Assembly (NCBI RefSeq): GCF_058153355.1
Contig: NZ_CM177019.1
Length of the DNA stretch: 64,000 nucleotides
Reading direction: 5' to 3' (one strand)
A model generated the notes under the pieces. The model did no database searches. It saw nothing but the letters and a program-made list of their open reading frames with translations, and was not told the DNA's origin. Made by a program: the position numbers and the translations under genes. Shown one piece after another: positions 535 through 14,400 of the stretch (position 1 is its first letter; each line of letters opens with the position of its first letter).

Positions 535-3170
535 TGTTTTTCCTCACACCCTTTTCCTTGCGGACAGCCATTTTCCGGCAGACGCGCGTTCTGCTCCAAC
601 CATGCCTGGAGATTATCGCCAAAGCGTAAACTGCGCCACAGGGTAAAAATATTCTCTTCATGATGGTAATTAAGGTTTACCGTACCACTTTTACCGTCGA
701 CGCGACTGGTACCTGTAATATTGGCCTGCATGGTTAACACACCGAGATTATCTAAATTAATTTTTGTCGATGAACGGTTAATTTCCATATAGCGCAACCA
801 GTTAATTGCAGAACCCGCGGTCATATTGTCTTTCACCACCGCATCTGCGGTGTCTTTATCCAGCCGCAAGGTCATTGGTCCGCTATTTGCCAGCCAGCCG
901 TCTTTAACTATCCATTTTTCATTGTTCAGCCATAAAGGCAATGCCCCACTAAATGCCCCGGACATGGCGAATTGTTTCGGATTGACGGCGCTAACCAGTT
1001 CGCTGGATGAGAGATTATTCAGCCGCAACAGCGCCGGGTCATGTTGCGGCATGCGTAATTGTTTCATCAGCACGTTACCGCCTAACACATCGACGCTAAC
1101 ATCGGTCAACAACAATGGTTCGTCTTCACTCCACGGATAACGCCCTTGCAAATCAGCCGTAATATTTTTCGCTGTCACCAGATTAATCACTTCGGCAATT
1201 CGCAACGTAACGGGGCCGCGAGTCCCCAGATGCCAGGCTCCATCGGCAAAACGGAAAGGCAGGACAAAATCGACACCGTTAACCTGATTATCTGGCATCC
1301 AGGCACTACCGCCTTTCAACACACCGTGCCCTCCCGCGCGGAATCCTTGTTCAGGCGCAGCAGAAAATGCGACCTGGGCATACAGTTCGCCATCGCGTAA
1401 GTTCATCTTCCAGTCGGGTGGCACCAGCGGCTGGAATACGGTCAGTGATTGTTTAGGCCACCAGGCGTTACCGCGCAGACGAATACCGTCCCAGCGACCA
1501 TTTACCCGAACCGGGCCAATCTCACCAGCATGTAAATCGCCTTTAAAGAGGAAATACGTCGGATCGCGTCCATCGACGCTAAATTTTAAGGTTGATGGCG
1601 GTAACACACTGCCGCCAGTGAACAGCGTTTGCCCGGCGTCCAGTGACAGCGCGCCGCTAAAGGAGGGATGCTGTGCGTCACGTACCCAGACGACGGGCTT
1701 GTCGAGAATTAATCGCGGCTTTTCTACCGTCATCGTACCGTATTGTAACTGGTCGAAACCGGTTGAGAGATCGGTCAGCGTAATCGTGCTGTCATGCCAC
1801 TCACCTTTTCCTGCGACATCCCAGGTGGCATTCATCGGTGTAAAACTCCCTTTTCCCCAGTAGCGCCACTGCCAGCGGCCAGCGTCAGGGAGAAAATCAT
1901 TCGCCAGCCCATCCATATGCAGTACGAAATCGCCCAGTTCATTTTCATGCGCCTGCAAAATGGCCTGCAAACGTCCGTCAACACCACGTTGGGTGACTTT
2001 TACACCCGCTAAAGGCCAGCGGATTTCATCAATATCCAGCGAATCGATGACTCTTCCCTTCGAACGTAATAACGCGCCTGGCTCAAAGGCCAGCGTTGGG
2101 TCAGTCAGACTTCCGCTTAGCTGCGCAGGTAAACGGGCATATAAAATGAGGTCCGCCTGTTTCGCTTCACCGGTCAGCTGCAAAGGCAGCTGGCTGTTAT
2201 CCATACTTAATTTTCCTGGGCCAAAATTAAGCACCGCGTTGCCCTTACCCGCTTGCCCCTGGGTCAGCACACTCAGTCGTCCGCTGACCAGAGCGTTCTC
2301 AAGCCCTGCCTGCCAGTTGTCGACTTTGACACCCAGTCGTCCACTCAAAGGAAAACCTGCATACGGCCAGCTCCAGCGACCATCGCTTACGGTCAATTGT
2401 TGGCGAGTAATTTGCCACGGCAGATCGAGCAACGGATCGCCGTTATCCCGTGCCAGCACAATCAATTGCCCGCTATTTTCCTGCCAGTCCAGCTCGGCAT
2501 CCACCAGTGAAGGCTCCTGCGGCAAGTTTAACGTCGCAGTAGCATGACCCCTTACAGGAAGTCCATCCGGCACTAGCGGCATAGTAAATTCCCCCACCAG
2601 TTTAACCGGCGGCTGATTTTCAAACGCAGCGACATCCAGTTCGCTGACTGTAAGTTGTTGCCCTTTCAGCTGGCCTTGAAATTTAACTTTTTCGCCCTGA
2701 TAACGCAGTTGCTGGATATCGGAGTTTAATGCGAGAGAGAGTTTTCCCTGCCATTCCTGCCAGGGAGAAAAAATCAGTTTATCGATATTGATCCAGGTGT
2801 TAGGCAACATGGCCTGCCACTGCGCGAGGGTTTTTGGAGCGGCTGGCGATTGCTCCGTCTGCGGCAATTTCGCCAGACAAGCAGAATCAAGTTCTACCGT
2901 GCCGACGTTCAATAACCAGCGGCTGGGATGAGAAAGGCTGGCGTTGGTGATATGTGCAAGCTGACAATCTCCTACCAGATAACGGAGATCGGGAATGATT
3001 AAACCTTTACGCGTAATGCGTGGGCTTTCATCTAAAGCAATACGTGTGCCGAGCGGTAGCCAGATGCCCGCCAGCGTGGGAACCCACAAGCCGAGCGTCA
3101 TCAGCAGCGTCAACGGCACAAGAATAATCAGTAATAACAGCGCGAGAACGGCTTTATATTTACCCAGCAT
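531..3170 (-). CDS. ydbH: AsmA-family large membrane-anchored protein YdbH (879 aa)
   Basis: 879-aa ORF, N-terminal TM segment; length and context match YdbH. Confidence 0.85.
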   Translation of the reverse strand: MLGKYKAVLALLLLIILVPLTLLMTLGLWVPTLAGIWLPLGTRIALDESPRITRKGLIIPDLRYLVGDCQLAHITNASLSHPSRWLLNVGTVELDSACLAKLPQTEQSPAAPKTLAQWQAMLPNTWINIDKLIFSPWQEWQGKLSLALNSDIQQLRYQGEKVKFQGQLKGQQLTVSELDVAAFENQPPVKLVGEFTMPLVPDGLPVRGHATATLNLPQEPSLVDAELDWQENSGQLIVLARDNGDPLLDLPWQITRQQLTVSDGRWSWPYAGFPLSGRLGVKVDNWQAGLENALVSGRLSVLTQGQAGKGNAVLNFGPGKLSMDNSQLPLQLTGEAKQADLILYARLPAQLSGSLTDPTLAFEPGALLRSKGRVIDSLDIDEIRWPLAGVKVTQRGVDGRLQAILQAHENELGDFVLHMDGLANDFLPDAGRWQWRYWGKGSFTPMNATWDVAGKGEWHDSTITLTDLSTGFDQLQYGTMTVEKPRLILDKPVVWVRDAQHPSFSGALSLDAGQTLFTGGSVLPPSTLKFSVDGRDPTYFLFKGDLHAGEIGPVRVNGRWDGIRLRGNAWWPKQSLTVFQPLVPPDWKMNLRDGELYAQVAFSAAPEQGFRAGGHGVLKGGSAWMPDNQVNGVDFVLPFRFADGAWHLGTRGPVTLRIAEVINLVTAKNITADLQGRYPWSEDEPLLLTDVSVDVLGGNVLMKQLRMPQHDPALLRLNNLSSSELVSAVNPKQFAMSGAFSGALPLWLNNEKWIVKDGWLANSGPMTLRLDKDTADAVVKDNMTAGSAINWLRYMEINRSSTKINLDNLGVLTMQANITGTSRVDGKSGTVNLNYHHEENIFTLWRSLRFGDNLQAWLEQNARLPENGCPQGKGCEEKQ

Positions 3171-3377: not shown

Positions 3378-4367
3378 ATGAAACTCGCCGTTTATAGCAC
3401 AAAACAGTACGACAAGAAGTACCTGCAACAGGTGAACGAGTCCTTTGGCTTTGAGCTGGAATTTTTTGACTTTCTGCTGACGGAAAAAACCGCTAAAACG
3501 GCCAATGGCTGCGAAGCGGTATGTATTTTCGTAAACGATGACGGCAGCCGCCCGGTGCTGGAAGAACTGAAAAAGCACGGCGTTAAATATATCGCCCTGC
3601 GCTGTGCCGGTTTCAATAACGTCGACCTTGACGCAGCAAAAGAACTGGGGCTGAAAGTAGTCCGTGTTCCAGCCTATGATCCAGAAGCTGTTGCTGAACA
3701 CGCCATCGGTATGATGATGACGCTGAACCGCCGTATCCATCGCGCATATCAGCGTACGCGTGACGCCAACTTCTCTCTGGAAGGTCTGACCGGCTTTACC
3801 ATGTATGGCAAAACGGCAGGCGTTATCGGTACTGGTAAAATCGGTGTGGCGATGCTGCGCATTCTCAAAGGTTTTGGTATGCGTCTGCTGGCGTTCGATC
3901 CGTATCCAAGTGCGGCAGCGCTGGAACTCGGTGTGGAGTATGTCGATCTGCCAACCCTGTTCTCTGAATCAGACGTTATCTCTCTGCACTGCCCGCTGAC
4001 ACCGGAAAACTACCATCTGTTGAACGAAGCCGCCTTCGATCAGATGAAAAAAGGCGTGATGATCGTCAATACCAGTCGCGGTGCATTGATTGATTCTCAG
4101 GCGGCAATTGAAGCGCTGAAAAATCAGAAAATTGGTTCGTTGGGTATGGACGTGTATGAAAACGAACGCGATCTGTTCTTTGAAGATAAATCCAACGACG
4201 TAATCCAGGATGACGTATTCCGTCGTCTGTCTGCCTGCCACAACGTGCTGTTTACCGGGCACCAGGCATTCCTGACAGCAGAAGCTCTGACCAGTATTTC
4301 CCAAACTACCCTGCAAAACTTAAGCAATCTGGAAAAAGGCGAAACCTGCCCGAACGAACTGGTTTAA
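3378..4367 (+). CDS. ldhA: fermentative D-lactate dehydrogenase (329 aa)
   Basis: 2-hydroxyacid dehydrogenase fold with NAD motif GVIGTGKIG; start MKLAVYSTKQYDKKYL. Confidence 0.95.
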   Translation: MKLAVYSTKQYDKKYLQQVNESFGFELEFFDFLLTEKTAKTANGCEAVCIFVNDDGSRPVLEELKKHGVKYIALRCAGFNNVDLDAAKELGLKVVRVPAYDPEAVAEHAIGMMMTLNRRIHRAYQRTRDANFSLEGLTGFTMYGKTAGVIGTGKIGVAMLRILKGFGMRLLAFDPYPSAAALELGVEYVDLPTLFSESDVISLHCPLTPENYHLLNEAAFDQMKKGVMIVNTSRGALIDSQAAIEALKNQKIGSLGMDVYENERDLFFEDKSNDVIQDDVFRRLSACHNVLFTGHQAFLTAEALTSISQTTLQNLSNLEKGETCPNELV

Positions 4368-5436: not shown

Positions 5437-8400
5437 ATGATTACTATTGACGGTAATGGCGCGGTTGCTTCGGTGGCGTTTCGCACCAGTGAAGTTATCG
5501 CCATCTACCCTATTACCCCCAGTTCCACGATGGCAGAACAGGCTGATGCATGGGCCGGAAACGGCTTGAAAAACGTTTGGGGAGACACACCACGCGTGGT
5601 TGAAATGCAGTCGGAAGCGGGTGCTATCGCTACCGTGCATGGTGCTTTGCAAACTGGCGCCCTCTCAACATCGTTTACGTCATCGCAGGGTTTGCTGCTG
5701 ATGATCCCAACGCTGTACAAACTGGCAGGCGAACTGACGCCGTTTGTCCTGCATGTTGCGGCTCGTACCGTTGCCACACATGCACTCTCTATTTTTGGCG
5801 ATCATTCCGACGTCATGGCAGTGCGCCAGACGGGTTGCGCGATGTTGTGTGCAGCAAACGTCCAGGAGGCGCAAGACTTTGCTCTCATTTCGCACATTGC
5901 GACGCTGAAAAGTCGCGTGCCATTTATTCATTTCTTTGATGGTTTCCGCACCTCCCACGAGATCAATAAAATTGTCCCGCTGGCCGATGACACTATTCTT
6001 GAACTGATGCCGCAGGCAGAAATTGATGCTCATCGCGCCCGTGCACTCAACCCGGAACATCCGGTGATCCGCGGTACGTCCGCCAATCCTGACACTTATT
6101 TCCAGTCTCGCGAAGCCACCAACCCATGGTACAACGCAGTCTATGACCATGTTGAACAGGCGATGAATGATTTCGCTGCCGCGACAGGTCGCCAGTATCA
6201 GCCGTTTGAGTATTACGGGCATCCACAAGCGGAACGGGTGATTATCCTGATGGGCTCTGCCATTGACACCTGTGAAGAAGTGGTTGATGAATTGCTAACC
6301 CGTGGCGAAAAAGTCGGCGTGCTGAAAGTTCGCCTGTACCGTCCCTTCTCCGCCAAACACTTACTGCAAGCGTTGCCGGACTCTGTTCGGACAGTGGCGG
6401 TGCTGGATCGCACCAAAGAGCCAGGTGCGCAAGCGGAACCCCTGTACCTGGATGTGATGACCGCACTGGCAGAAGCCTTTAATAATGGCGAGCGTGAAAC
6501 CCTGCCCCGTGTCATTGGTGGGCGCTATGGTCTTTCATCCAAAGAATTTGGCCCGGACTGTGTACTGGCGGTATTTGCCGAGCTCAACGCGGCTAAACCG
6601 AAAGCGCGCTTTACGGTTGGTATTTACGATGATGTGACCAATCTGTCACTGCCGTTGCCGGAAAACACCCTGCCAAACTCGGCGAAACTGGAAGCCTTGT
6701 TTTATGGTCTTGGTAGTGATGGCAGCGTTTCCGCGACCAAAAACAATATCAAGATTATCGGTAATTCCACGCCGTGGTACGCACAGGGCTATTTTGTTTA
6801 CGACTCCAAAAAGGCGGGCGGCCTGACGGTTTCTCACCTTCGCGTGAGCGAACAGCCGATTCGTTCCGCTTATCTCATTTCCCAGGCTGATTTTGTTGGC
6901 TGCCACCAGTTGCAGTTTATCGATAAATATCAGATGGCTGAACGTTTAAAACCTGGCGGCATTTTCCTGCTCAACACGCCGTACAGCGCAGATGAAGTAT
7001 GGTCGCGCTTGCCGCAGGAAGTTCAGGCCGTGTTAAACCAGAAAAAAGCGCGCTTCTATGTGATTAACGCGGCGAAAATCGCCCGTGAATGTGGCCTGGC
7101 GGCCCGTATTAATACCGTCATGCAGATGGCTTTTTTCCATCTGACGCAAATTCTGCCTGGCGATAGCGCCCTGGCCGAATTGCAGGGCGCTATCGCCAAA
7201 AGCTACAGCAGCAAAGGCCAGGATCTGGTGGAACGCAACTGGCAGGCTCTGGCACTGGCGCGTGAATCGGTAGAAGAAGTTCCGCTGCAGCCGGTTAATC
7301 CGCACAGCGCCAATCGACCGCCTGTGGTTTCCGATGCTGCTCCTGATTTCGTGAAAACCGTTACCGCTGCGATGCTCGCCGGACTTGGCGATGCTCTCCC
7401 CGTTTCGGCGCTGCCGCCAGACGGCACCTGGCCGATGGGTACCACCCGCTGGGAAAAACGCAATATTGCCGAAGAGATCCCCATCTGGAAAGAGGAACTC
7501 TGTACCCAATGTAACCACTGCGTTGCCGCTTGCCCACACTCAGCTATTCGCGCCAAAGTGGTGCCGCCTGAAGCAATGGAAAATGCCCCTGCCAGCCTGC
7601 ATTCGCTGGATGTAAAATCGCGTGATATGCGCGGGCAGAAATATGTCTTGCAGGTAGCTCCGGAAGATTGCACCGGCTGTAACCTGTGCGTCGAAGTTTG
7701 CCCGGCGAAAGACCGTCAGGATCCAGAGATTAAAGCCATCAATATGATGTCGCGCCTGGAACATGTCGAGGAAGAGAAAATCAATTACGACTTCTTCCTG
7801 AATTTACCAGAAATCGATCGCAGCAAACTGGAACGTATTGATATTCGTACATCGCAACTGATTACACCGCTGTTTGAATATTCAGGTGCTTGCTCTGGTT
7901 GTGGCGAGACGCCGTATATTAAATTGCTGACTCAGCTCTATGGCGATCGGATGTTGATCGCTAACGCTACGGGTTGTTCTTCAATTTATGGTGGTAACCT
8001 GCCCTCCACACCATATACCACTGATGCCAACGGTCGTGGACCGGCATGGGCGAACTCGCTGTTTGAAGATAACGCCGAATTCGGCCTTGGTTTCCGCCTG
8101 ACGGTCGATCAACACCGTGTCCGCGTGCTGCGTCTGCTGGATCAATTTGCCGATAAAATCCCGGCGGAATTACTGACTGCGTTGAAATCAGACGCCACGC
8201 CAGAGGTTCGTCGTGAACAGGTTGCAGCTTTACGCCAGCAACTCAACGATGTTGCCGAAGCACATGAACTGCTACGTGATGCAGATGCACTGGTGGAAAA
8301 ATCAATCTGGCTGATTGGTGGCGATGGCTGGGCTTACGATATCGGCTTTGGCGGTCTGGATCATGTATTGAGTCTGACGGAAAACGTCAACATTCTGGTG

Positions 8401-8961
8401 CTGGATACGCAATGCTATTCCAACACCGGTGGTCAGGCGTCGAAAGCGACACCGCTGGGTGCAGTAACTAAATTTGGCGAGCACGGCAAACGTAAAGCGC
8501 GTAAAGATCTTGGCGTCAGTATGATGATGTACGGTCATGTTTATGTGGCGCAAATTTCTCTCGGCGCGCAGCTCAACCAGACAGTGAAAGCGATTCAGGA
8601 AGCAGAAGCGTATCCGGGACCATCGCTGATCATCGCTTATAGCCCGTGTGAAGAGCATGGTTACGATCTGGCACTCAGTCACGACCAGATGCGCCAACTC
8701 ACTGCCACCGGCTTCTGGCCGCTATATCGCTTCGATCCACGTCGAGCCGATGAAGGCAAACTACCGCTGGCACTGGATTCACGCCCGCCGTCAGAAGCAC
8801 TGGAAGAAACGTTACTTCACGAGCAGCGTTTCCGTCGTCTGAATTCACAGCAGCCAGAAGTGGCAGAACAGTTATGGAAAGATGCCGTAGCTGATTTGCA
8901 AAAACGCTATGACTTCCTGGCACAAATGGCCGGAAAAGCGGAAAAAAGCAACACCGATTAA
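5437..8961 (+). CDS. ydbK: pyruvate:flavodoxin/ferredoxin oxidoreductase (1174 aa)
   Basis: two 4Fe-4S ferredoxin motifs CTQCNHCVAACP and CTGCNLCVEVCP, TPP-binding GGDGW; length matches YdbK/Pfo. Confidence 0.95.
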   Translation: MITIDGNGAVASVAFRTSEVIAIYPITPSSTMAEQADAWAGNGLKNVWGDTPRVVEMQSEAGAIATVHGALQTGALSTSFTSSQGLLLMIPTLYKLAGELTPFVLHVAARTVATHALSIFGDHSDVMAVRQTGCAMLCAANVQEAQDFALISHIATLKSRVPFIHFFDGFRTSHEINKIVPLADDTILELMPQAEIDAHRARALNPEHPVIRGTSANPDTYFQSREATNPWYNAVYDHVEQAMNDFAAATGRQYQPFEYYGHPQAERVIILMGSAIDTCEEVVDELLTRGEKVGVLKVRLYRPFSAKHLLQALPDSVRTVAVLDRTKEPGAQAEPLYLDVMTALAEAFNNGERETLPRVIGGRYGLSSKEFGPDCVLAVFAELNAAKPKARFTVGIYDDVTNLSLPLPENTLPNSAKLEALFYGLGSDGSVSATKNNIKIIGNSTPWYAQGYFVYDSKKAGGLTVSHLRVSEQPIRSAYLISQADFVGCHQLQFIDKYQMAERLKPGGIFLLNTPYSADEVWSRLPQEVQAVLNQKKARFYVINAAKIARECGLAARINTVMQMAFFHLTQILPGDSALAELQGAIAKSYSSKGQDLVERNWQALALARESVEEVPLQPVNPHSANRPPVVSDAAPDFVKTVTAAMLAGLGDALPVSALPPDGTWPMGTTRWEKRNIAEEIPIWKEELCTQCNHCVAACPHSAIRAKVVPPEAMENAPASLHSLDVKSRDMRGQKYVLQVAPEDCTGCNLCVEVCPAKDRQDPEIKAINMMSRLEHVEEEKINYDFFLNLPEIDRSKLERIDIRTSQLITPLFEYSGACSGCGETPYIKLLTQLYGDRMLIANATGCSSIYGGNLPSTPYTTDANGRGPAWANSLFEDNAEFGLGFRLTVDQHRVRVLRLLDQFADKIPAELLTALKSDATPEVRREQVAALRQQLNDVAEAHELLRDADALVEKSIWLIGGDGWAYDIGFGGLDHVLSLTENVNILVLDTQCYSNTGGQASKATPLGAVTKFGEHGKRKARKDLGVSMMMYGHVYVAQISLGAQLNQTVKAIQEAEAYPGPSLIIAYSPCEEHGYDLALSHDQMRQLTATGFWPLYRFDPRRADEGKLPLALDSRPPSEALEETLLHEQRFRRLNSQQPEVAEQLWKDAVADLQKRYDFLAQMAGKAEKSNTD

Positions 8962-9326: not shown

Positions 9327-10460
9327 ATGAAAAGCAAAGTACTGGCACTTTTAATTCCTGCCCTGCTCGCCGCAGGTGCTGCACATGCAGCCGAAGTTTA
9401 TAATAAAGACGGCAACAAATTAGATCTGTATGGCAAAGTTGATGGCCTGCATTATTTTTCTGATAATTCAGCGAAAGATGGCGACCAGAGCTATGCGCGT
9501 CTGGGTTTTAAAGGCGAAACCCAAATTAACGATCAACTTACTGGCTACGGTCAATGGGAATACAATATTCAGGCAAACAACACTGAATCTTCAAAAAACC
9601 AGTCATGGACCCGTCTGGCATTTGCCGGACTGAAATTTGCAGATTACGGTTCTTTCGATTACGGACGTAATTATGGCGTAATGTACGACATCGAAGGCTG
9701 GACCGATATGCTGCCTGAATTTGGCGGTGACTCTTATACCAATGCAGACAACTTTATGACTGGTCGTGCCAATGGCGTCGCGACTTATCGTAACACTGAT
9801 TTCTTCGGTCTGGTAAATGGTCTGAACTTCGCGGTGCAGTATCAAGGTAACAACGAAGGAGCCAGTAATGGTCAGGAAGGCACCAACAACGGACGTGATG
9901 TTCGCCATGAAAACGGTGACGGCTGGGGTCTTTCCACAACATATGATTTAGGCATGGGCTTTAGCGCTGGTGCGGCATACACCTCTTCTGACCGCACCAA
10001 TGACCAGGTTAACCATACTGCGGCTGGTGGTGATAAAGCAGACGCGTGGACTGCTGGGCTAAAATACGATGCTAACAATATTTACCTGGCAACCATGTAT
10101 TCAGAAACGCGTAATATGACCCCGTTTGGCGACAGCGATTATGCTGTTGCAAACAAAACCCAGAACTTTGAAGTCACTGCACAGTACCAGTTTGATTTTG
10201 GTCTGCGTCCGGCAGTCTCTTTCCTGATGTCTAAAGGCCGTGACCTGCACGCTACCGGTGGTGCAGACAACCCGGCAGGTGTTGATGATAAAGATCTTGT
10301 AAAATACGCCGATGTTGGCGCGACTTACTATTTCAATAAAAATATGTCCACTTATGTTGACTATAAAATCAACCTGTTGGATGAAGATGACAGTTTCTAT
10401 GCTGCTAACGGCATCTCTACCGATGATATTGTCGCTTTAGGTCTGGTTTATCAGTTCTAA
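9327..10460 (+). CDS. ompN: outer-membrane porin OmpN (377 aa)
   Basis: general-porin family: signal peptide, [17 protein letters not shown] start of mature protein, C-terminal ...LVYQF. Confidence 0.9.
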
Positions 10461-10468
10461 ATCCTCCT

Positions 10469-10493
10469 GCCCGCTGTTATGGCGGGCTTTTTC
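10469..10493 (+). terminator. rho-independent terminator of ompN
   Basis: gcccgctgttatggcgggc followed by tttttc. Confidence 0.8.
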
Positions 10494-10519
10494 TGCTTAT
10501 TCTTCCTCCTTTGATCTAA

Positions 10520-11035
<516 letters not shown>

Positions 11036-11042
11036 CACTAAC

Positions 11043-11068
11043 GCCCGCACATTGCTGCGGGCTTTTTG
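11043..11068 (+). terminator. rho-independent terminator of uspF
   Basis: gcccgcacattgctgcgggc followed by tttttg. Confidence 0.8.
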
Positions 11069-11123
11069 ATTCATTTCGCAAATGTGCTGACATTTTCCCC
11101 TCTAATCATTACAATTTAAATTT

Positions 11124-11723
11124 ATGAATTATGCATTGATAATCGCTATTATAATATCGTTCCCCTGTGCATTATTATCAGTTTTTCTGGTATTAAAAGA
11201 CTGGGCGCTAATAGGAGATGCAATGAACCACGCAATGTTTCCTGGCATAGTTCTAGCCTGGATTATAGGTATGCCGCTGGGAATTGGTGCATTTATTGTA
11301 GGACTGTCTTGTGCAATTGCAACTGGCTATCTGAAAGATAATAGCATCATAAAGAAAGATACCATTATAGGTATCGTTTTTTCAGGAATTTTTGTCTTGA
11401 CTATCAACAGGCACAAGTCAGCGGATTACAGATATCATTATTACATTACGGTTTACTCTGCATGGTATCGCCTACCATTTTTGCCACATTAAAAGCAGTC
11501 GGAATTATTCTGTCTATATACTATTAATAGCTCCAGGGTCTATTGCTGTCCTCATCACGCATCGCTTTCATAAGACATTACTTATCGCCGTAACGATATC
11601 AATAACAATATCAGGCGTATGGTTATTATATTTTCTCGACAGAGCCCCAGCGCCGACAATCGTCCTCTTATTTGCTGTAGCATTTCTTTTCGCGCTTATA
11701 ATAATCAATTTTCGGAAACAATA
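11124..11723 (+). pseudogene. degraded ABC-3 (ZnuB/MntB-like) permease remnant; frameshifted and internally shortened
   Basis: N-terminal frame gives ...ALIGDAMNHAMFPGIVLAWIIGMPLGIGAFIVGL... (like ZnuB GDTLAHASLLGVAFGLL); a second frame gives the permease C-terminus LIAPGSIAVLITHRFHKTLLIAVTISITISGVWLLYFLDRAPAPTIVLLFAVAFLFALII; total under 200 codons, AT-rich. Confidence 0.5.
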
Positions 11724-12003
11724 ATCTCAACAGTAGAATAAAGAGGCAAATCAATCATTACATATATAAGATGGTGCTAATATTGCACCGCCTTTAAATT
11801 GAACTTTATCCTTTCACCCTTACACAATTTAAGGAATGCAGATGACTATTTTATCAGCACCCAGCCTTTTTCCTGGTAATCGAAAACTTGAAAATCATTA
11901 ACTCTAAGAAATTCTGCCAAATCGTTGAAATTACTTTAAATTAGACTCGAACAAATCAACCCCTGATGGGGCTTTTACTTATCCATTTAATCGGGTATAT
12001 ATC

Positions 12004-12053
12004 GACCTCCATCTGCCCGCCTCAGATTCGTACCTGGTGGAGGTCTTTTTTCG
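12004..12053 (+). terminator. hairpin plus T-run in AT-rich island
   Basis: gacctcca...tggaggtc inverted repeat followed by ttttttcg. Confidence 0.35.
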
Positions 12054-12112
12054 TTACCTCTTTCCCCCTTTAGTTCAGTATAAAATCATCAAACTAATGC
12101 TGTTCACACTAT

Positions 12113-12292
12113 TTACCTCCAGCATTCTATATAAATAATAGAAATAAAAACCCCAATACATAGTGCATTGGCATGACCAAACATCAATGCCATTATACTC
12201 GCCTCTGTTAAATACTCGCTAGTTAATATGATAGGCACGCATGATATAACAATCCATATGCTAATACATAAATACACCAGTATTTTTCTCAT
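12113..12292 (-). CDS. hypothetical 59-aa hydrophobic small protein (candidate only)
   Basis: ATG preceded by AGGGA SD at 6-nt spacing; translation MRKILVYLCISIWIVISCVPIILTSEYLTEASIMALMFGHANALCIGVFISIIYIECWR with two hydrophobic stretches; lies in AT-rich DNA where chance ORFs are common. Confidence 0.2.
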   Translation of the reverse strand: MRKILVYLCISIWIVISCVPIILTSEYLTEASIMALMFGHANALCIGVFISIIYIECWR

Positions 12293-13049
12293 AGTCAGTC
12301 CCTGTGATTAACAATCAAGGCATAGTTAAGCATATTTCACATTCAAACGTAAACATTATTAATAACATTATGTCAATCGAACTGACATCACGATTCAAGC
12401 CCTCTTCAGACTGAAGGCTAGAGCAGCGTAGAACATTTCAAAACAATACACTGAAAAAATACTTGAACAAAAAACTTAATTCTTTTTTATTGTGAACTTT
12501 AGTAATTTTGTCATGCAACTCTTTATTACATTTAGGCCTATCTTATTTCATGGCAACGCAAATACAGGACCATTTCTTGTGCTATGGATAAGTAATAAGC
12601 TAGTTACATCTTATTAAGAGAACCATTTTCACATATCAAAATATCATCACCACCCACAATGAATTAAGTATTTTTCTTATTCTTTAGATTAGATACGTAA
12701 TGAATCCCTAACTCCATTCGGGTGTCATGGCTCTTTCATTTGAAATACATTCATATCCAATGTAATATTTCTATGCGCAAATATAACTACCGACCATACT
12801 CATCATTTATTACAGAGAATTATTTTATTCACCGAAAAGTTTCACAAAATATCCCCTGATAGAAAACTAAAAAACACTGCATAATATCGCTATTCTGGCA
12901 CTTGCGAAAAATTATATTCTGCACCTGTTGTAGCGTTCTATTTCTCCGCCTGGCAACGAATGCACAATGTCCGCCACAGTTTCTGTTCTAATTTCTTCCT
13001 GTGTTACCGCATCCTGTACGGGTAGCGCAACACCAGCATGCTAAGCAAG

Positions 13050-13309
13050 GCTTTCCCATCAGATTTCACTACGACTATTTGGGAGCGAGATGGAATGCAG
13101 CAGTAAAACGTGCTGGTATTCGCCGCCGTAATCCGTACCATACGCGACATACTTTTGCCTGCTGGCTGTTGACGGCAGGAGCGAACCCGGCATTTATAGC
13201 CAGCCAGATGGGGCATGAAACTGCGCAGATGGTGTATGAAATTTACGGTATGTGGATTGATGACATGAACGACGAACAGGTAGCTATGTTGAATGCGCGG
13301 TTATCGTAG
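13050..13309 (+). pseudogene. 5'-truncated tyrosine-recombinase (phage integrase) 3' fragment
   Basis: translation ...RRRNPYHTRHTFACWLLTAGANPAFIASQMGHETAQMVYEIYGMWIDDMNDEQ... carries the integrase C-terminal H-x-x-R/HT box and the catalytic Tyr region; no N-terminal domain; abuts ttcA 5' end where intR lies in K-12. Confidence 0.6.
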
Positions 13310-13360
13310 TTGCAAAGTTTGCCCCCAATTTGCCCCATTTAGTACCAGAGAACTGAAATA

Positions 13361-14296
13361 ATGCAAGAAAATCAAAAGAATACGAAGAAAGAGATATACA
13401 ATCTGAACAAATTACAAAAACGTCTGCGTCGTAACGTGGGCGAAGCCATTGCTGACTTCAATATGATTGAAGAAGGCGATCGCATCATGGTTTGCCTCTC
13501 CGGGGGTAAAGACAGCTATACCATGCTGGAGATTCTGCGCAATTTGCAGCAAAGCGCGCCAATCAATTTTTCGCTGGTGGCTGTTAACCTCGATCAAAAG
13601 CAACCGGGCTTCCCGGAACACGTTCTGCCCGAGTATCTTGAAAAGCTGGGCATTGAGTACAAGATTGTGGAAGAGAACACTTACGGTATCGTGAAAGAGA
13701 AGATTCCGGAGGGCAAAACCACTTGCTCACTGTGTTCTCGTCTTCGTCGCGGAATTCTTTACCGTACCGCAACGGAACTGGGAGCGACGAAGATCGCGCT
13801 GGGTCACCATCGTGACGATATCCTGCAAACGTTGTTCTTAAATATGTTCTACGGCGGCAAGATGAAAGGTATGCCTCCGAAACTGATGAGCGATGATGGC
13901 AAACATATTGTGATTCGTCCGCTGGCCTACTGCCGCGAGAAAGATATTCAGCGCTTTGCCGATGCAAAAGCGTTCCCGATTATTCCTTGCAACCTGTGCG
14001 GTTCACAGCCTAACCTGCAACGTCAGGTGATTGCTGACATGTTGCGTGACTGGGATAAACGTTATCCGGGGCGTATCGAGACGATGTTCAGCGCGATGCA
14101 GAATGTGGTGCCGTCGCATCTGTGCGATACCAACCTGTTCGATTTCAAAGGCATTACCCACGGTTCTGAAGTGGTTAACGGGGGTGATCTGGCGTTTGAT
14201 CGCGAAGAGATCCCTCTACAACCGGCGGGTTGGCAGCCTGAAGAAGATGAAAATCAGTTGGATGAGTTACGACTGAATGTGGTGGAAGTGAAATAA
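13361..14296 (+). CDS. ttcA: tRNA 2-thiocytidine(32) synthetase TtcA (311 aa)
   Basis: PP-loop ATPase motif CLSGGKDS plus CSLCSR/CNLC cysteine pairs. Confidence 0.9.
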
Positions 14297-14400
14297 CCCG
14301 GATAGCGCCCGATGCGCAAGCTTATCGGGCTACTCTTATGGAGGCCGGATAAGACGCGGCCAGCGTCGCATCCGGCAATCCCGAAGAAGATGTTTACTCT
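14297..14400. repeat. REP/BIME-type extragenic palindromes
   Basis: gcccgatgcgcaagcttatcgggc and gccggataagacgcggccagcgtcgcatccggc between convergent ttcA and dbpA. Confidence 0.6.

Follow-up and report, generated by a model that had tools for sequence, protein, structure and literature searches.

What occupies the Rac prophage site of an Escherichia coli genome in which only 2325 bp lie between uspF and ttcA? The locus in question spans positions 11036-13360 of a 64,000-nt stretch of contig NZ_CM177019.1 (RefSeq assembly GCF_058153355.1), and we refer to that whole stretch as the window. We conclude that the gap is very likely a grounded, almost fully deleted lambdoid prophage of the Rac family, of which the right end was kept together with a putative ttcA promoter. 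"Grounded" is used here for prophages that can no longer be excised (Ramisetty and Sudhakari 2019, PMC6379469). The first-pass annotation, made from the DNA alone, had described only 2.3 kb of AT-rich DNA with no intact gene, and had proposed that an integrative element once occupied the ttcA attachment site and was almost entirely lost. This description is borne out. The G+C content is 37.7% in the gap and 34.6% in its core (11108-12852), compared to 49.7% for the whole window. In the RefSeq (PGAP) annotation of the identical arrangement in LF82, FDAARGOS_1372 and CFT073, the gap holds three pseudogenes and no intact gene. The intR end, the attR arm and phage fragments in Rac order mark the lost element, and the AT-rich segment, which K-12 lacks, as do about 4380 of 5426 complete E. 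coli genomes, is not conserved core DNA.

Alignment by blastn to MG1655 delimits the gap on both sides. Window positions 10401-11115 match uspF and 80 bp beyond it at 99%, and positions 13078-14400 match the last 232 bp of intR, a 51-bp spacer and ttcA at 96.9% with no gaps. Positions 11116-13077 have no counterpart in K-12. We also aligned the junctions of the window with an unoccupied site (strain SCEC020023, uspF-176 bp-ttcA) and with both ends of K-12 Rac. This alignment places the end of the left chromosomal homology at 11107; blastn had run on to 11115 through partial matches.

The right end of the gap derives from Rac. The end of an IntR-type tyrosine integrase gene lies directly 5' of ttcA in the same orientation and shares 98.7% amino acid identity with IntR residues 336-411. 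In alignments with K-12 and with strain TUM11353, which carries an intact 51-kb Rac, the fragment is continuous with the phage attR arm and then with ttcA. Nucleotide identity over window positions 13078-13360 is 97.5% to K-12 and 99.6% to the full Rac of TUM11353. The first-pass annotation had placed a recombinase fragment at 13050-13309. The fragment is present, adjoins ttcA and derives from intR; similarity to K-12 intR, however, begins only at 13078 instead of 13050, and the open reading frame (ORF) that contains it, 13001-13309, has the C-terminal sequence ...NPYHTRHTFACWLL...EIYGMWIDD....

The att core, AAGAAAGAGATATACAATCTGAACAA, is found at 13385-13410, inside the 5' end of ttcA. The ttcA sequence is phage-type at least through codon 12, and the crossover lies somewhere within the core. 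No second copy of the core was found anywhere in the 64 kb when up to three mismatches were allowed. Since the left homology ends at 11107, upstream of the position of ttcC in K-12, attL must have been deleted, and a further ~150 bp of chromosomal DNA went with it. Left with a single att core and lacking an integrase, the remnant is locked in and cannot excise.

The N-terminus of TtcA is MSQNQEISKKEQYNLNK at the unoccupied site and in K-12 ttcC, and MQENQQITKKEQYNLNK in K-12 ttcA, where it is supplied by Rac. In the window it is the same as in the prophage-bearing strain TUM11353 and in a metagenome-assembled genome (L012), and unlike the empty-site MSQNQEISKKEQY. The attP allele differs from that of K-12 Rac (KNT...EIY in the window, QIT...EQY in K-12). 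As the window allele is identical to that of a strain with a full Rac, the TtcA N-terminus here is, judged by its sequence, phage-supplied and from an attP allele other than that of K-12. This settles the choice between a phage-supplied and an ancestral N-terminus that the first-pass annotation had left open.

Three further phage fragments, from hok, DUF977 and DUF1627 genes, lie on the minus strand in the order seen in two Rac-like prophages, L004 and the TUM11353 Rac (L090). The DUF977 and DUF1627 fragments are 74.5% and 83% identical to their TUM11353 counterparts, alike in order and strand, and in Rac-type prophages DUF1627 directly follows the replication genes. The hok fragment matches L004 and is also 82% identical to hokD/Hok-Gef genes in thousands of genomes. 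Its translation, ...VTKKDLHQVRI*GGQMEVDIY, corresponds to ...VTRKDLCEVQIRIGQTEVAVF of Hok. The homology extends over only about 56-68 bp (78-82%), and there is no intact hok ORF of about 50 codons with mok/sok elements. Rfam gave no hit for the hok remnant, and nothing in the gap scored at a family's gathering threshold. All identifiable pieces of the gap agree in order and strand with a Rac-type prophage, and a single prophage origin is the simplest reading of this match. It should also be noted that the TUM11353 Rac carries cargo between its nin-like genes and DUF977 (L090 32900-37100), a block missing from K-12 Rac that encodes a TehB family protein, a SIR2-family deacylase, a nucleoside triphosphate pyrophosphatase, an amidohydrolase and a TetR regulator.

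The left part of the gap holds a decayed permease gene. The first-pass annotation had reported an ABC-3 permease in two out-of-frame pieces at 11124-11723. The span is exactly that of the PGAP pseudogene, labelled a frameshifted metal ABC transporter permease; the remnant occupies three frames rather than two pieces, and its closest relative is SitD. It shares 71.6% amino acid identity over 95 residues with codons 9-103 of SitD from phage 4A7 (tblastx) and about 67-69% nucleotide identity with sitD of phages and plasmids (blastn). The read-through product (P0001) carries Pfam domain PF00950 and has its best database matches among SitD proteins. No closer intact relative was found among 5.8 billion proteins, the best match to P0001 being the same scar read through in other strains. 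The intact frame of about 285 residues and the sitABC partners are absent, and uspF occupies the place of sitC. Lambdoid phage 4A7 carries int, attP, sitA, sitB, sitC and sitD in this order, followed by tail-fibre genes on the opposite strand, so the prophage form has sitABCD beside attL with sitD innermost. The remnant (sitD') therefore stands beside uspF in the position and orientation that sitD would have in a 4A7-type prophage. Such sit-like cargo is not present in K-12 Rac.

Between sitD' and the DUF977 fragment lies orphan AT-rich DNA that includes an unsupported 59-residue ORF (12113-12292, minus strand). About 1.07 kb of the AT-rich core had no match, beyond the scar itself, in 50,697 phage records, 72,556 plasmids and 5426 E. 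coli genomes, and small ORFs compared to PHROGs gave nothing under E = 0.06. A second reading of the locus would confine the prophage to the right ~500 bp (the DUF977, DUF1627 and int fragments) and make the AT-rich 1.75 kb an unrelated, horizontally acquired islet that replaced the attL end. The low G+C content of the core, 34.6% compared to 44-50% for the recognizable phage fragments, would fit this reading, as would a left junction that is not an att site and the presence of only a 56-bp hok match among the same phages, plasmids and genomes. However, sitD' has exactly the placement and the orientation next to att that sitD has in lambdoid phages, hok genes typically belong to the nin region of such phages and the one here stands in Rac-like order, and Rac itself has AT-rich transporter cargo, trkG. 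We therefore consider an islet unlikely and infer a common prophage origin for sitD', the orphan DNA and the right end.

Some observations nevertheless weigh against a Rac-family prophage throughout the gap. The ~1.07 kb of core just described lacks matches and sitD' is only ~70% identical to any known sitD, so it is by position and orientation alone that these parts are assigned to the prophage. Furthermore, identity to extant Rac is 75-85% for the DUF977 and DUF1627 fragments and 99.6% for the int end. Two explanations would account for this difference: a mosaic parent phage, or later recombination that renewed the right end.

Under the grounded-prophage reading, a Rac-type phage would have integrated by IntR site-specific recombination into the first codons of ttcA in the ancestor of a large E. 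coli lineage. As for Rac in K-12, integration would have carried the host's own ttcA promoter and initial codons (ttcC) away to the opposite end of the prophage, and a phage-supplied copy would have replaced the displaced promoter and codons. Several later deletions, at least three of them large, would have removed more than 95% of the prophage, and with one of these attL/ttcC would have gone, as would the old promoter's -10 region and the three leading genes of the sit-like cargo operon. What would remain, in prophage order, is sitD', ~1.1 kb of orphan DNA with the hok remnant, the DUF977 and DUF1627 fragments, 232 bp of intR, the 51-bp attR arm and a hybrid ttcA. The surviving right-hand 283 bp would contain the ttcA promoter and 5' untranslated region (UTR), and the first TtcA codons come from the phage.

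The retained end of intR coincides with a mapped transcription start. SMRT-Cappable-seq of MG1655 in M9 and rich medium detected a single monocistronic ttcA transcript with its start at reverse-strand position 1412160 (Yan et al. 2018, PMC6131387, Supplementary Data 2). This position falls within intR, 8 nt past TACCAT (1412173-1412168), at the A of GCGGCATAC. It is part of a conserved 48-nt block upstream of ttcA, AAAACGTGCTGGYATTCGYCGCCGTAATCCGTACCATACRCGSCATAC (in K-12, NC_000913.3 1412160-1412209; L003 4161-4210, minus), which we read as a sigma-70 promoter composed of CTGGYA, 17 nt, TACCAT and a G+C-rich discriminator. Mean pairwise identity across 10 sequences is 0.92 in the block and 0.57-0.66 in its flanks. 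For six pseudogenised relics, the values are 0.90 in the block, 0.57 in the remaining int 3' end and 0.42 upstream of the block. The window and K-12 blocks differ by one substitution, G to A at -3.

To place these sequences in a wider context, ttcA loci were collected from 80 species representatives. Most Enterobacterales in this set have an IntR-like C-terminal relic directly 5' of ttcA. The int gene is intact in three loci. Relics of 60-90 codons with stops are found in E. albertii, Enterobacter, Brenneria, Kluyvera and others, and the relic is reduced to ~17 codons (KRAGIRRRNPYHTRHT) in Pseudocitrobacter, Superficieibacter, Pectobacterium, Mangrovibacter, Pantoea and others. The 48-nt block is common to all of these loci.

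The int fragment could instead be neutral debris retained by chance, with ttcA transcribed from the 51-bp spacer or from further upstream. Two points count against a promoter in the fragment and would favor this alternative: the match to consensus is poor (3/6 for the -35 hexamer, 7/12 for CTGGTA/TACCAT together, and no listing by the promoter scan), and the start site has been mapped in K-12 only. However, the sole ttcA start detected in K-12 falls in the 48-nt block, the block is kept in decayed relics of at least 16 Enterobacterales species representatives in which the flanks are unalignable, and independent scars (the window, E. albertii, Enterobacter, Brenneria, Kluyvera) all retain it. 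Chance retention is therefore quite improbable. The fragment provides the ttcA promoter and 5' UTR in K-12 and, by analogy, would do so in the window strain. Selection on the promoter would then explain its retention, and independent scars would always keep the int 3' piece because the ttcA promoter sits there.

A second, older int-derived promoter block is present at sites without a prophage. The 176-bp uspF-ttcA spacer of unoccupied E. coli includes AAATGTGCTGACATTTTCCCCTCTAATCCGTACCATACACGCCACAGTTTT, which aligns to int box II with a score of 42, compared to 16.7 +/- 1.9 for 500 shuffles, and translates to KCADIFPSNPYHTRHSF. The empty-site block (L005 1681-1731) has a form shared with Citrobacter (L016, L039, ~3865-3915), in which the -35 is improved to CTGACA. 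Citrobacter and unoccupied E. coli also share the uspF-ttcA gene order and the MSQNQ(E/D)IS N-terminus. The "ancestral" empty-site version of the promoter and TtcA N-terminus is thus probably phage-derived as well. The left part of this older block, AAATGTGCTGACATTTTCCCCTCTAATC, is retained in the window, where it is identical to the empty site and to K-12 and is cut between its -35 and -10. We considered whether the left junction of the gap is the start of the older int relic and rejected this, as the relic begins ~28 bp further left, at 11080, and the junction is internal to it.

The relation between the two blocks bears on a further alternative, in which the scar is ancestral and a deletion within it gave rise to the short empty site seen in other E. 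coli. A deletion between the AATC motifs at 11104-11107 and 13130-13133 would indeed yield an empty-site-like sequence. However, the empty-site relic and the int block are only 76% identical, and the relic shows derived changes (KCADIFP) in common with Citrobacter, which has uspF directly beside ttcA and the same empty-site N-terminus, and the scar is confined to ~19% of genomes. We rejected an ancestral scar on the Citrobacter evidence and regard it as extremely improbable.

Two side observations concern the older block. In the window, the junction at 11087-11115 joins its -35, CTGACA, to a new TACAAT with 17-nt spacing, pointing into sitD'. This fusion is the top promoter-like site predicted in the region by the promoter scan (10/12 consensus). 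In K-12, the older block persists upstream of ttcC (L003 26959-27150), pointing into Rac on the strand of ynaM, ynaE and pinR, and might drive these genes.

The integrase family points to a direction of descent between host and phage copies. The motif R-x-x-Y-[QH]-x-R-H-T-[FY]-A is common to distant IntR homologues (37-54% identical; P0121, P0122, P0134 and others). Since the block encodes this family-wide integrase catalytic motif, the host copies would descend from int and not the reverse. A ttcA 5' end was not recognizable after the int genes of P0121, P0122 and P0134, which are on metagenome contigs of 2-3 kb with little readable flank; the P0134 int gene adjoins an ORF other than ttcA. 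In 34 of 78 species representatives, the 250 nt upstream of ttcA contain a related motif, CGTAYMATRYGCSC, comprising the -10 and discriminator, compared to 2 of 379 control windows. Regions upstream of ttcA in Vibrionaceae translate to SGI...NPYHTR(H/L)TFA.

We tentatively suggest, as a possibility that falls somewhat short of probable, that the ttcA promoter of essentially all Enterobacterales, and apparently of Vibrionaceae, is an exapted fragment of an IntR-family integrase gene (box II codons KRAGIRRRNPYHTRHTF) that phages renew in one direction. Each integration would displace the resident ttcA promoter and N-terminus, and prophage decay could then safely delete the displaced copy and not the phage-supplied one. 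As only the displaced copy would be dispensable, Rac-family phages would repeatedly renew the ttcA promoter and the first dozen or so codons. If this is true, the empty E. coli site and the "ancient" TtcA' are an older phage-supplied version, and the scar is an intermediate step.

Viral contigs added little to this picture. A scan for a Vibrio-type integrase with the 14-mer AATCCGTATCATAC returned 120 loci, none of which had an IntR-like gene at the match, and these were rejected as chance hits. The IntR relatives found in viral contigs were Rac copies only, 99-100% identical, and were of no use for a test of synonymous-site conservation. Two metagenome contigs are worth mentioning separately. 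In L293 (~1650-1700), which encodes the 37% identical integrase P0134, CTGGCA-17-TACCAT-ACACGCC occurs in the same codons upstream of a different gene; judged from such sequence, an outward-reading promoter from the integrase gene may be more general in this family. In L292, downstream of position 3016 and following the P0122 int gene, the DNA resembles by eye a thiamine pyrophosphate (thi-box) riboswitch, and this would hint at a further case of integration into a gene's 5' end.

The uspF-ttcA arrangement in the window is not a chance event. The AT-rich core is present in 1049 of the 5426 complete E. coli genomes and at least 80% covered in 1044, in 1043 of which it is contiguous with ttcA. 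The whole scar recurs in these 1043 genomes, with 98.3-99.3% identity among the full-length matches listed. This divergence is at the level of core genes and fits vertical inheritance. Carriers include LF82, CFT073, an O25b:H4-ST131 strain, an ST1193 strain and an O18 strain, all of which we take to be phylogroup B2. We estimated the shares of the different site states from an evenly spaced sample of the ranking together with a count of extra matching places. The scar accounts for ~19% of complete genomes, the short empty site (uspF-176 bp-ttcA) for ~45%, and an intR-ttcA junction with uspF elsewhere, indicating a prophage-occupied site, for about one third. Roughly 40% of genomes lacking the scar have a prophage at ttcA, and a second intR-ttcA junction was found in none of the 42 scar-bearing genomes among the matches listed. 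The scarred site thus seems never to have been re-occupied.

An independent parallel is seen in E. albertii NBRC 107761, in which uspF is separated from a decayed int 3' end by a different, unrelated AT-rich insert (~2.0 kb, 36% G+C; L011 1100-3145). The left breaks of the two scars coincide to within a few bases, and in E. albertii the break is followed by a degenerate ttcC, sequence matching the Rac attL arm and a fragment of tfaR. This supports the view that decay drops the displaced host copy and retains the phage-supplied promoter and N-terminus. The E. albertii insert also has a 159-residue ORF of unknown function.

The remnant can be compared to several known systems. It shares with Rac of K-12, and with CP-933R and Sp10, the attachment site, the integrase end beside ttcA, a phage-supplied TtcA N-terminus and, putatively, promoter, and gene order. 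In contrast to these prophages, it spans ~2.3 kb instead of 23-51 kb, lacks attL/ttcC, xisR and most of intR, and does not excise; it also has a different attP allele and sit-like cargo. Like other grounded prophages, it has lost an att site and the recombinase, has decayed by deletion and has kept a part useful to the host (PMC6379469). It differs from them in being an extreme end state with no intact gene, in which the useful part kept would be the promoter and 5' end of a host gene rather than a phage gene. Lambdoid phages with sitABCD (Escherichia phage 4A7 and the Lambda_ev series, which integrate at icd) likewise carry an ABC-3 Mn/Fe operon between att and the tail-fibre genes, with sitD innermost and oriented relative to int as here. 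Their integrase and att site (icd) are different, and the sitD of the window is only ~70% identical, a decayed pseudogene without sitABC. Phages that rebuild their target gene, such as e14 at the 3' end of icd and those with tRNA-gene integrases, also carry a copy of the displaced gene end, and the host gene stays functional with its sequence permanently altered after prophage decay. Here, by contrast, it is the 5' end that is replaced, so the phage must supply a promoter too, and that promoter would lie inside integrase coding sequence.

Replacement of the N-terminus has been associated with phenotypic effects. Liu et al. 2015 (PMC4632033) reported that excision of Rac changes four N-terminal residues of TtcA and alters the carbenicillin phenotype, and that the effect seen under carbenicillin depends on the N-terminal variant of TtcA. 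In the same study, CFT073 is a listed exception, with a Rac-type TtcA and no prophage in ttcA. Since CFT073 carries the scar, the exception is explained: the scar is the missing prophage. For a major lineage that includes the clinically important ST131, CFT073 and LF82, the phage-supplied N-terminus of TtcA and its promoter would thus be permanent.

The scar itself is ordinary in kind, a heavily decayed, non-excisable prophage remnant whose pseudogenes were already flagged by RefSeq. To that annotation, this analysis adds the origin of the TtcA N-terminus, an ordered map of the remnant, the explanation of the CFT073 exception and the evidence for a promoter in the integrase stub. The promoter inside an integrase gene is of moderate interest, and the idea that the stub houses the promoter of ttcA, and that empty sites have an older version of it, is moderately novel. 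It would give a concrete reason for the survival of an integrase 3' stub through prophage decay, namely the host-gene promoter within it, and suggests the general rule that phages integrating at the 5' end of a gene permanently rewrite the regulation of that gene.

Table 1. Features of the uspF-ttcA region and its flanks, in window coordinates.
Feature	Position	Strand	Basis or remarks
nifJ/ydbK	5437-8961		
ompN	9327-10460		
uspF, chromosomal left flank	10601-11035	+	RefSeq annotation of identical locus; 99% vs K-12
uspF intrinsic terminator, hairpin then T-run	11043-11062	+	Terminator scan; same in K-12 and empty site
Left part of older int-derived ttcA promoter block	11080-11107	+	-35 CTGACA at 11087-11092
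sitD-like ABC-3 permease pseudogene (sitD')	11108-11723	+	First 8 codons gone; ~169-bp internal deletion; 3 frames
PGAP pseudogene, metal ABC transporter permease	11124-11723		Frameshifted
Orphan AT-rich DNA	11724-12852	.	33.3% G+C; no detectable homologue except hok remnant
hok/gef toxin gene remnant	11993-12060	minus	In-frame stop; 78.6% over 56 bp to Hok/Gef gene of Rac-like prophage
DUF977 gene fragment	12853-12959	minus	74.5% over 110 bp to DUF977 of full TUM11353 Rac, E = 5e-12
PGAP pseudogene, DUF1627 fragment	12950-13065	minus	
DUF1627 gene fragment	12951-13072	minus	83-85.6% to DUF1627 genes of Rac-like prophages; PGAP pseudogene
intR 3' end (last 232 bp, 76 codons and stop)	13078-13309	+	Nucleotide and protein homology
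PGAP pseudogene, tyrosine recombinase C-terminal fragment	13079-13309		
Putative ttcA promoter in int fragment	13102-13149	+	-35 CTGGTA 13113-13118; 17-nt spacer; -10 TACCAT 13136-13141; predicted start A 13149
Phage attP-arm spacer (51 bp), now within ttcA 5' UTR	13310-13360	+	Unbroken int homology to K-12 and TUM11353
ttcA	13361-14296	+	5' end phage-type through at least codon 12 (~13361-13396)

Two weak RNA matches were noted in and near the gap. Within the orphan DNA, window 12445-12495 resembles the Salmonella small RNA STnc420 (26 bits compared to a gathering score of 70, E = 0.046), probably by chance in low-complexity sequence. Beyond the gap, ttcA is followed by dbpA on the opposite strand. 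Between the two genes, at 14343-14381, is a palindrome like those of repetitive extragenic palindromic elements, with weak naRNA4 matches on both strands (29 and 25 bits; gathering score 59.5).

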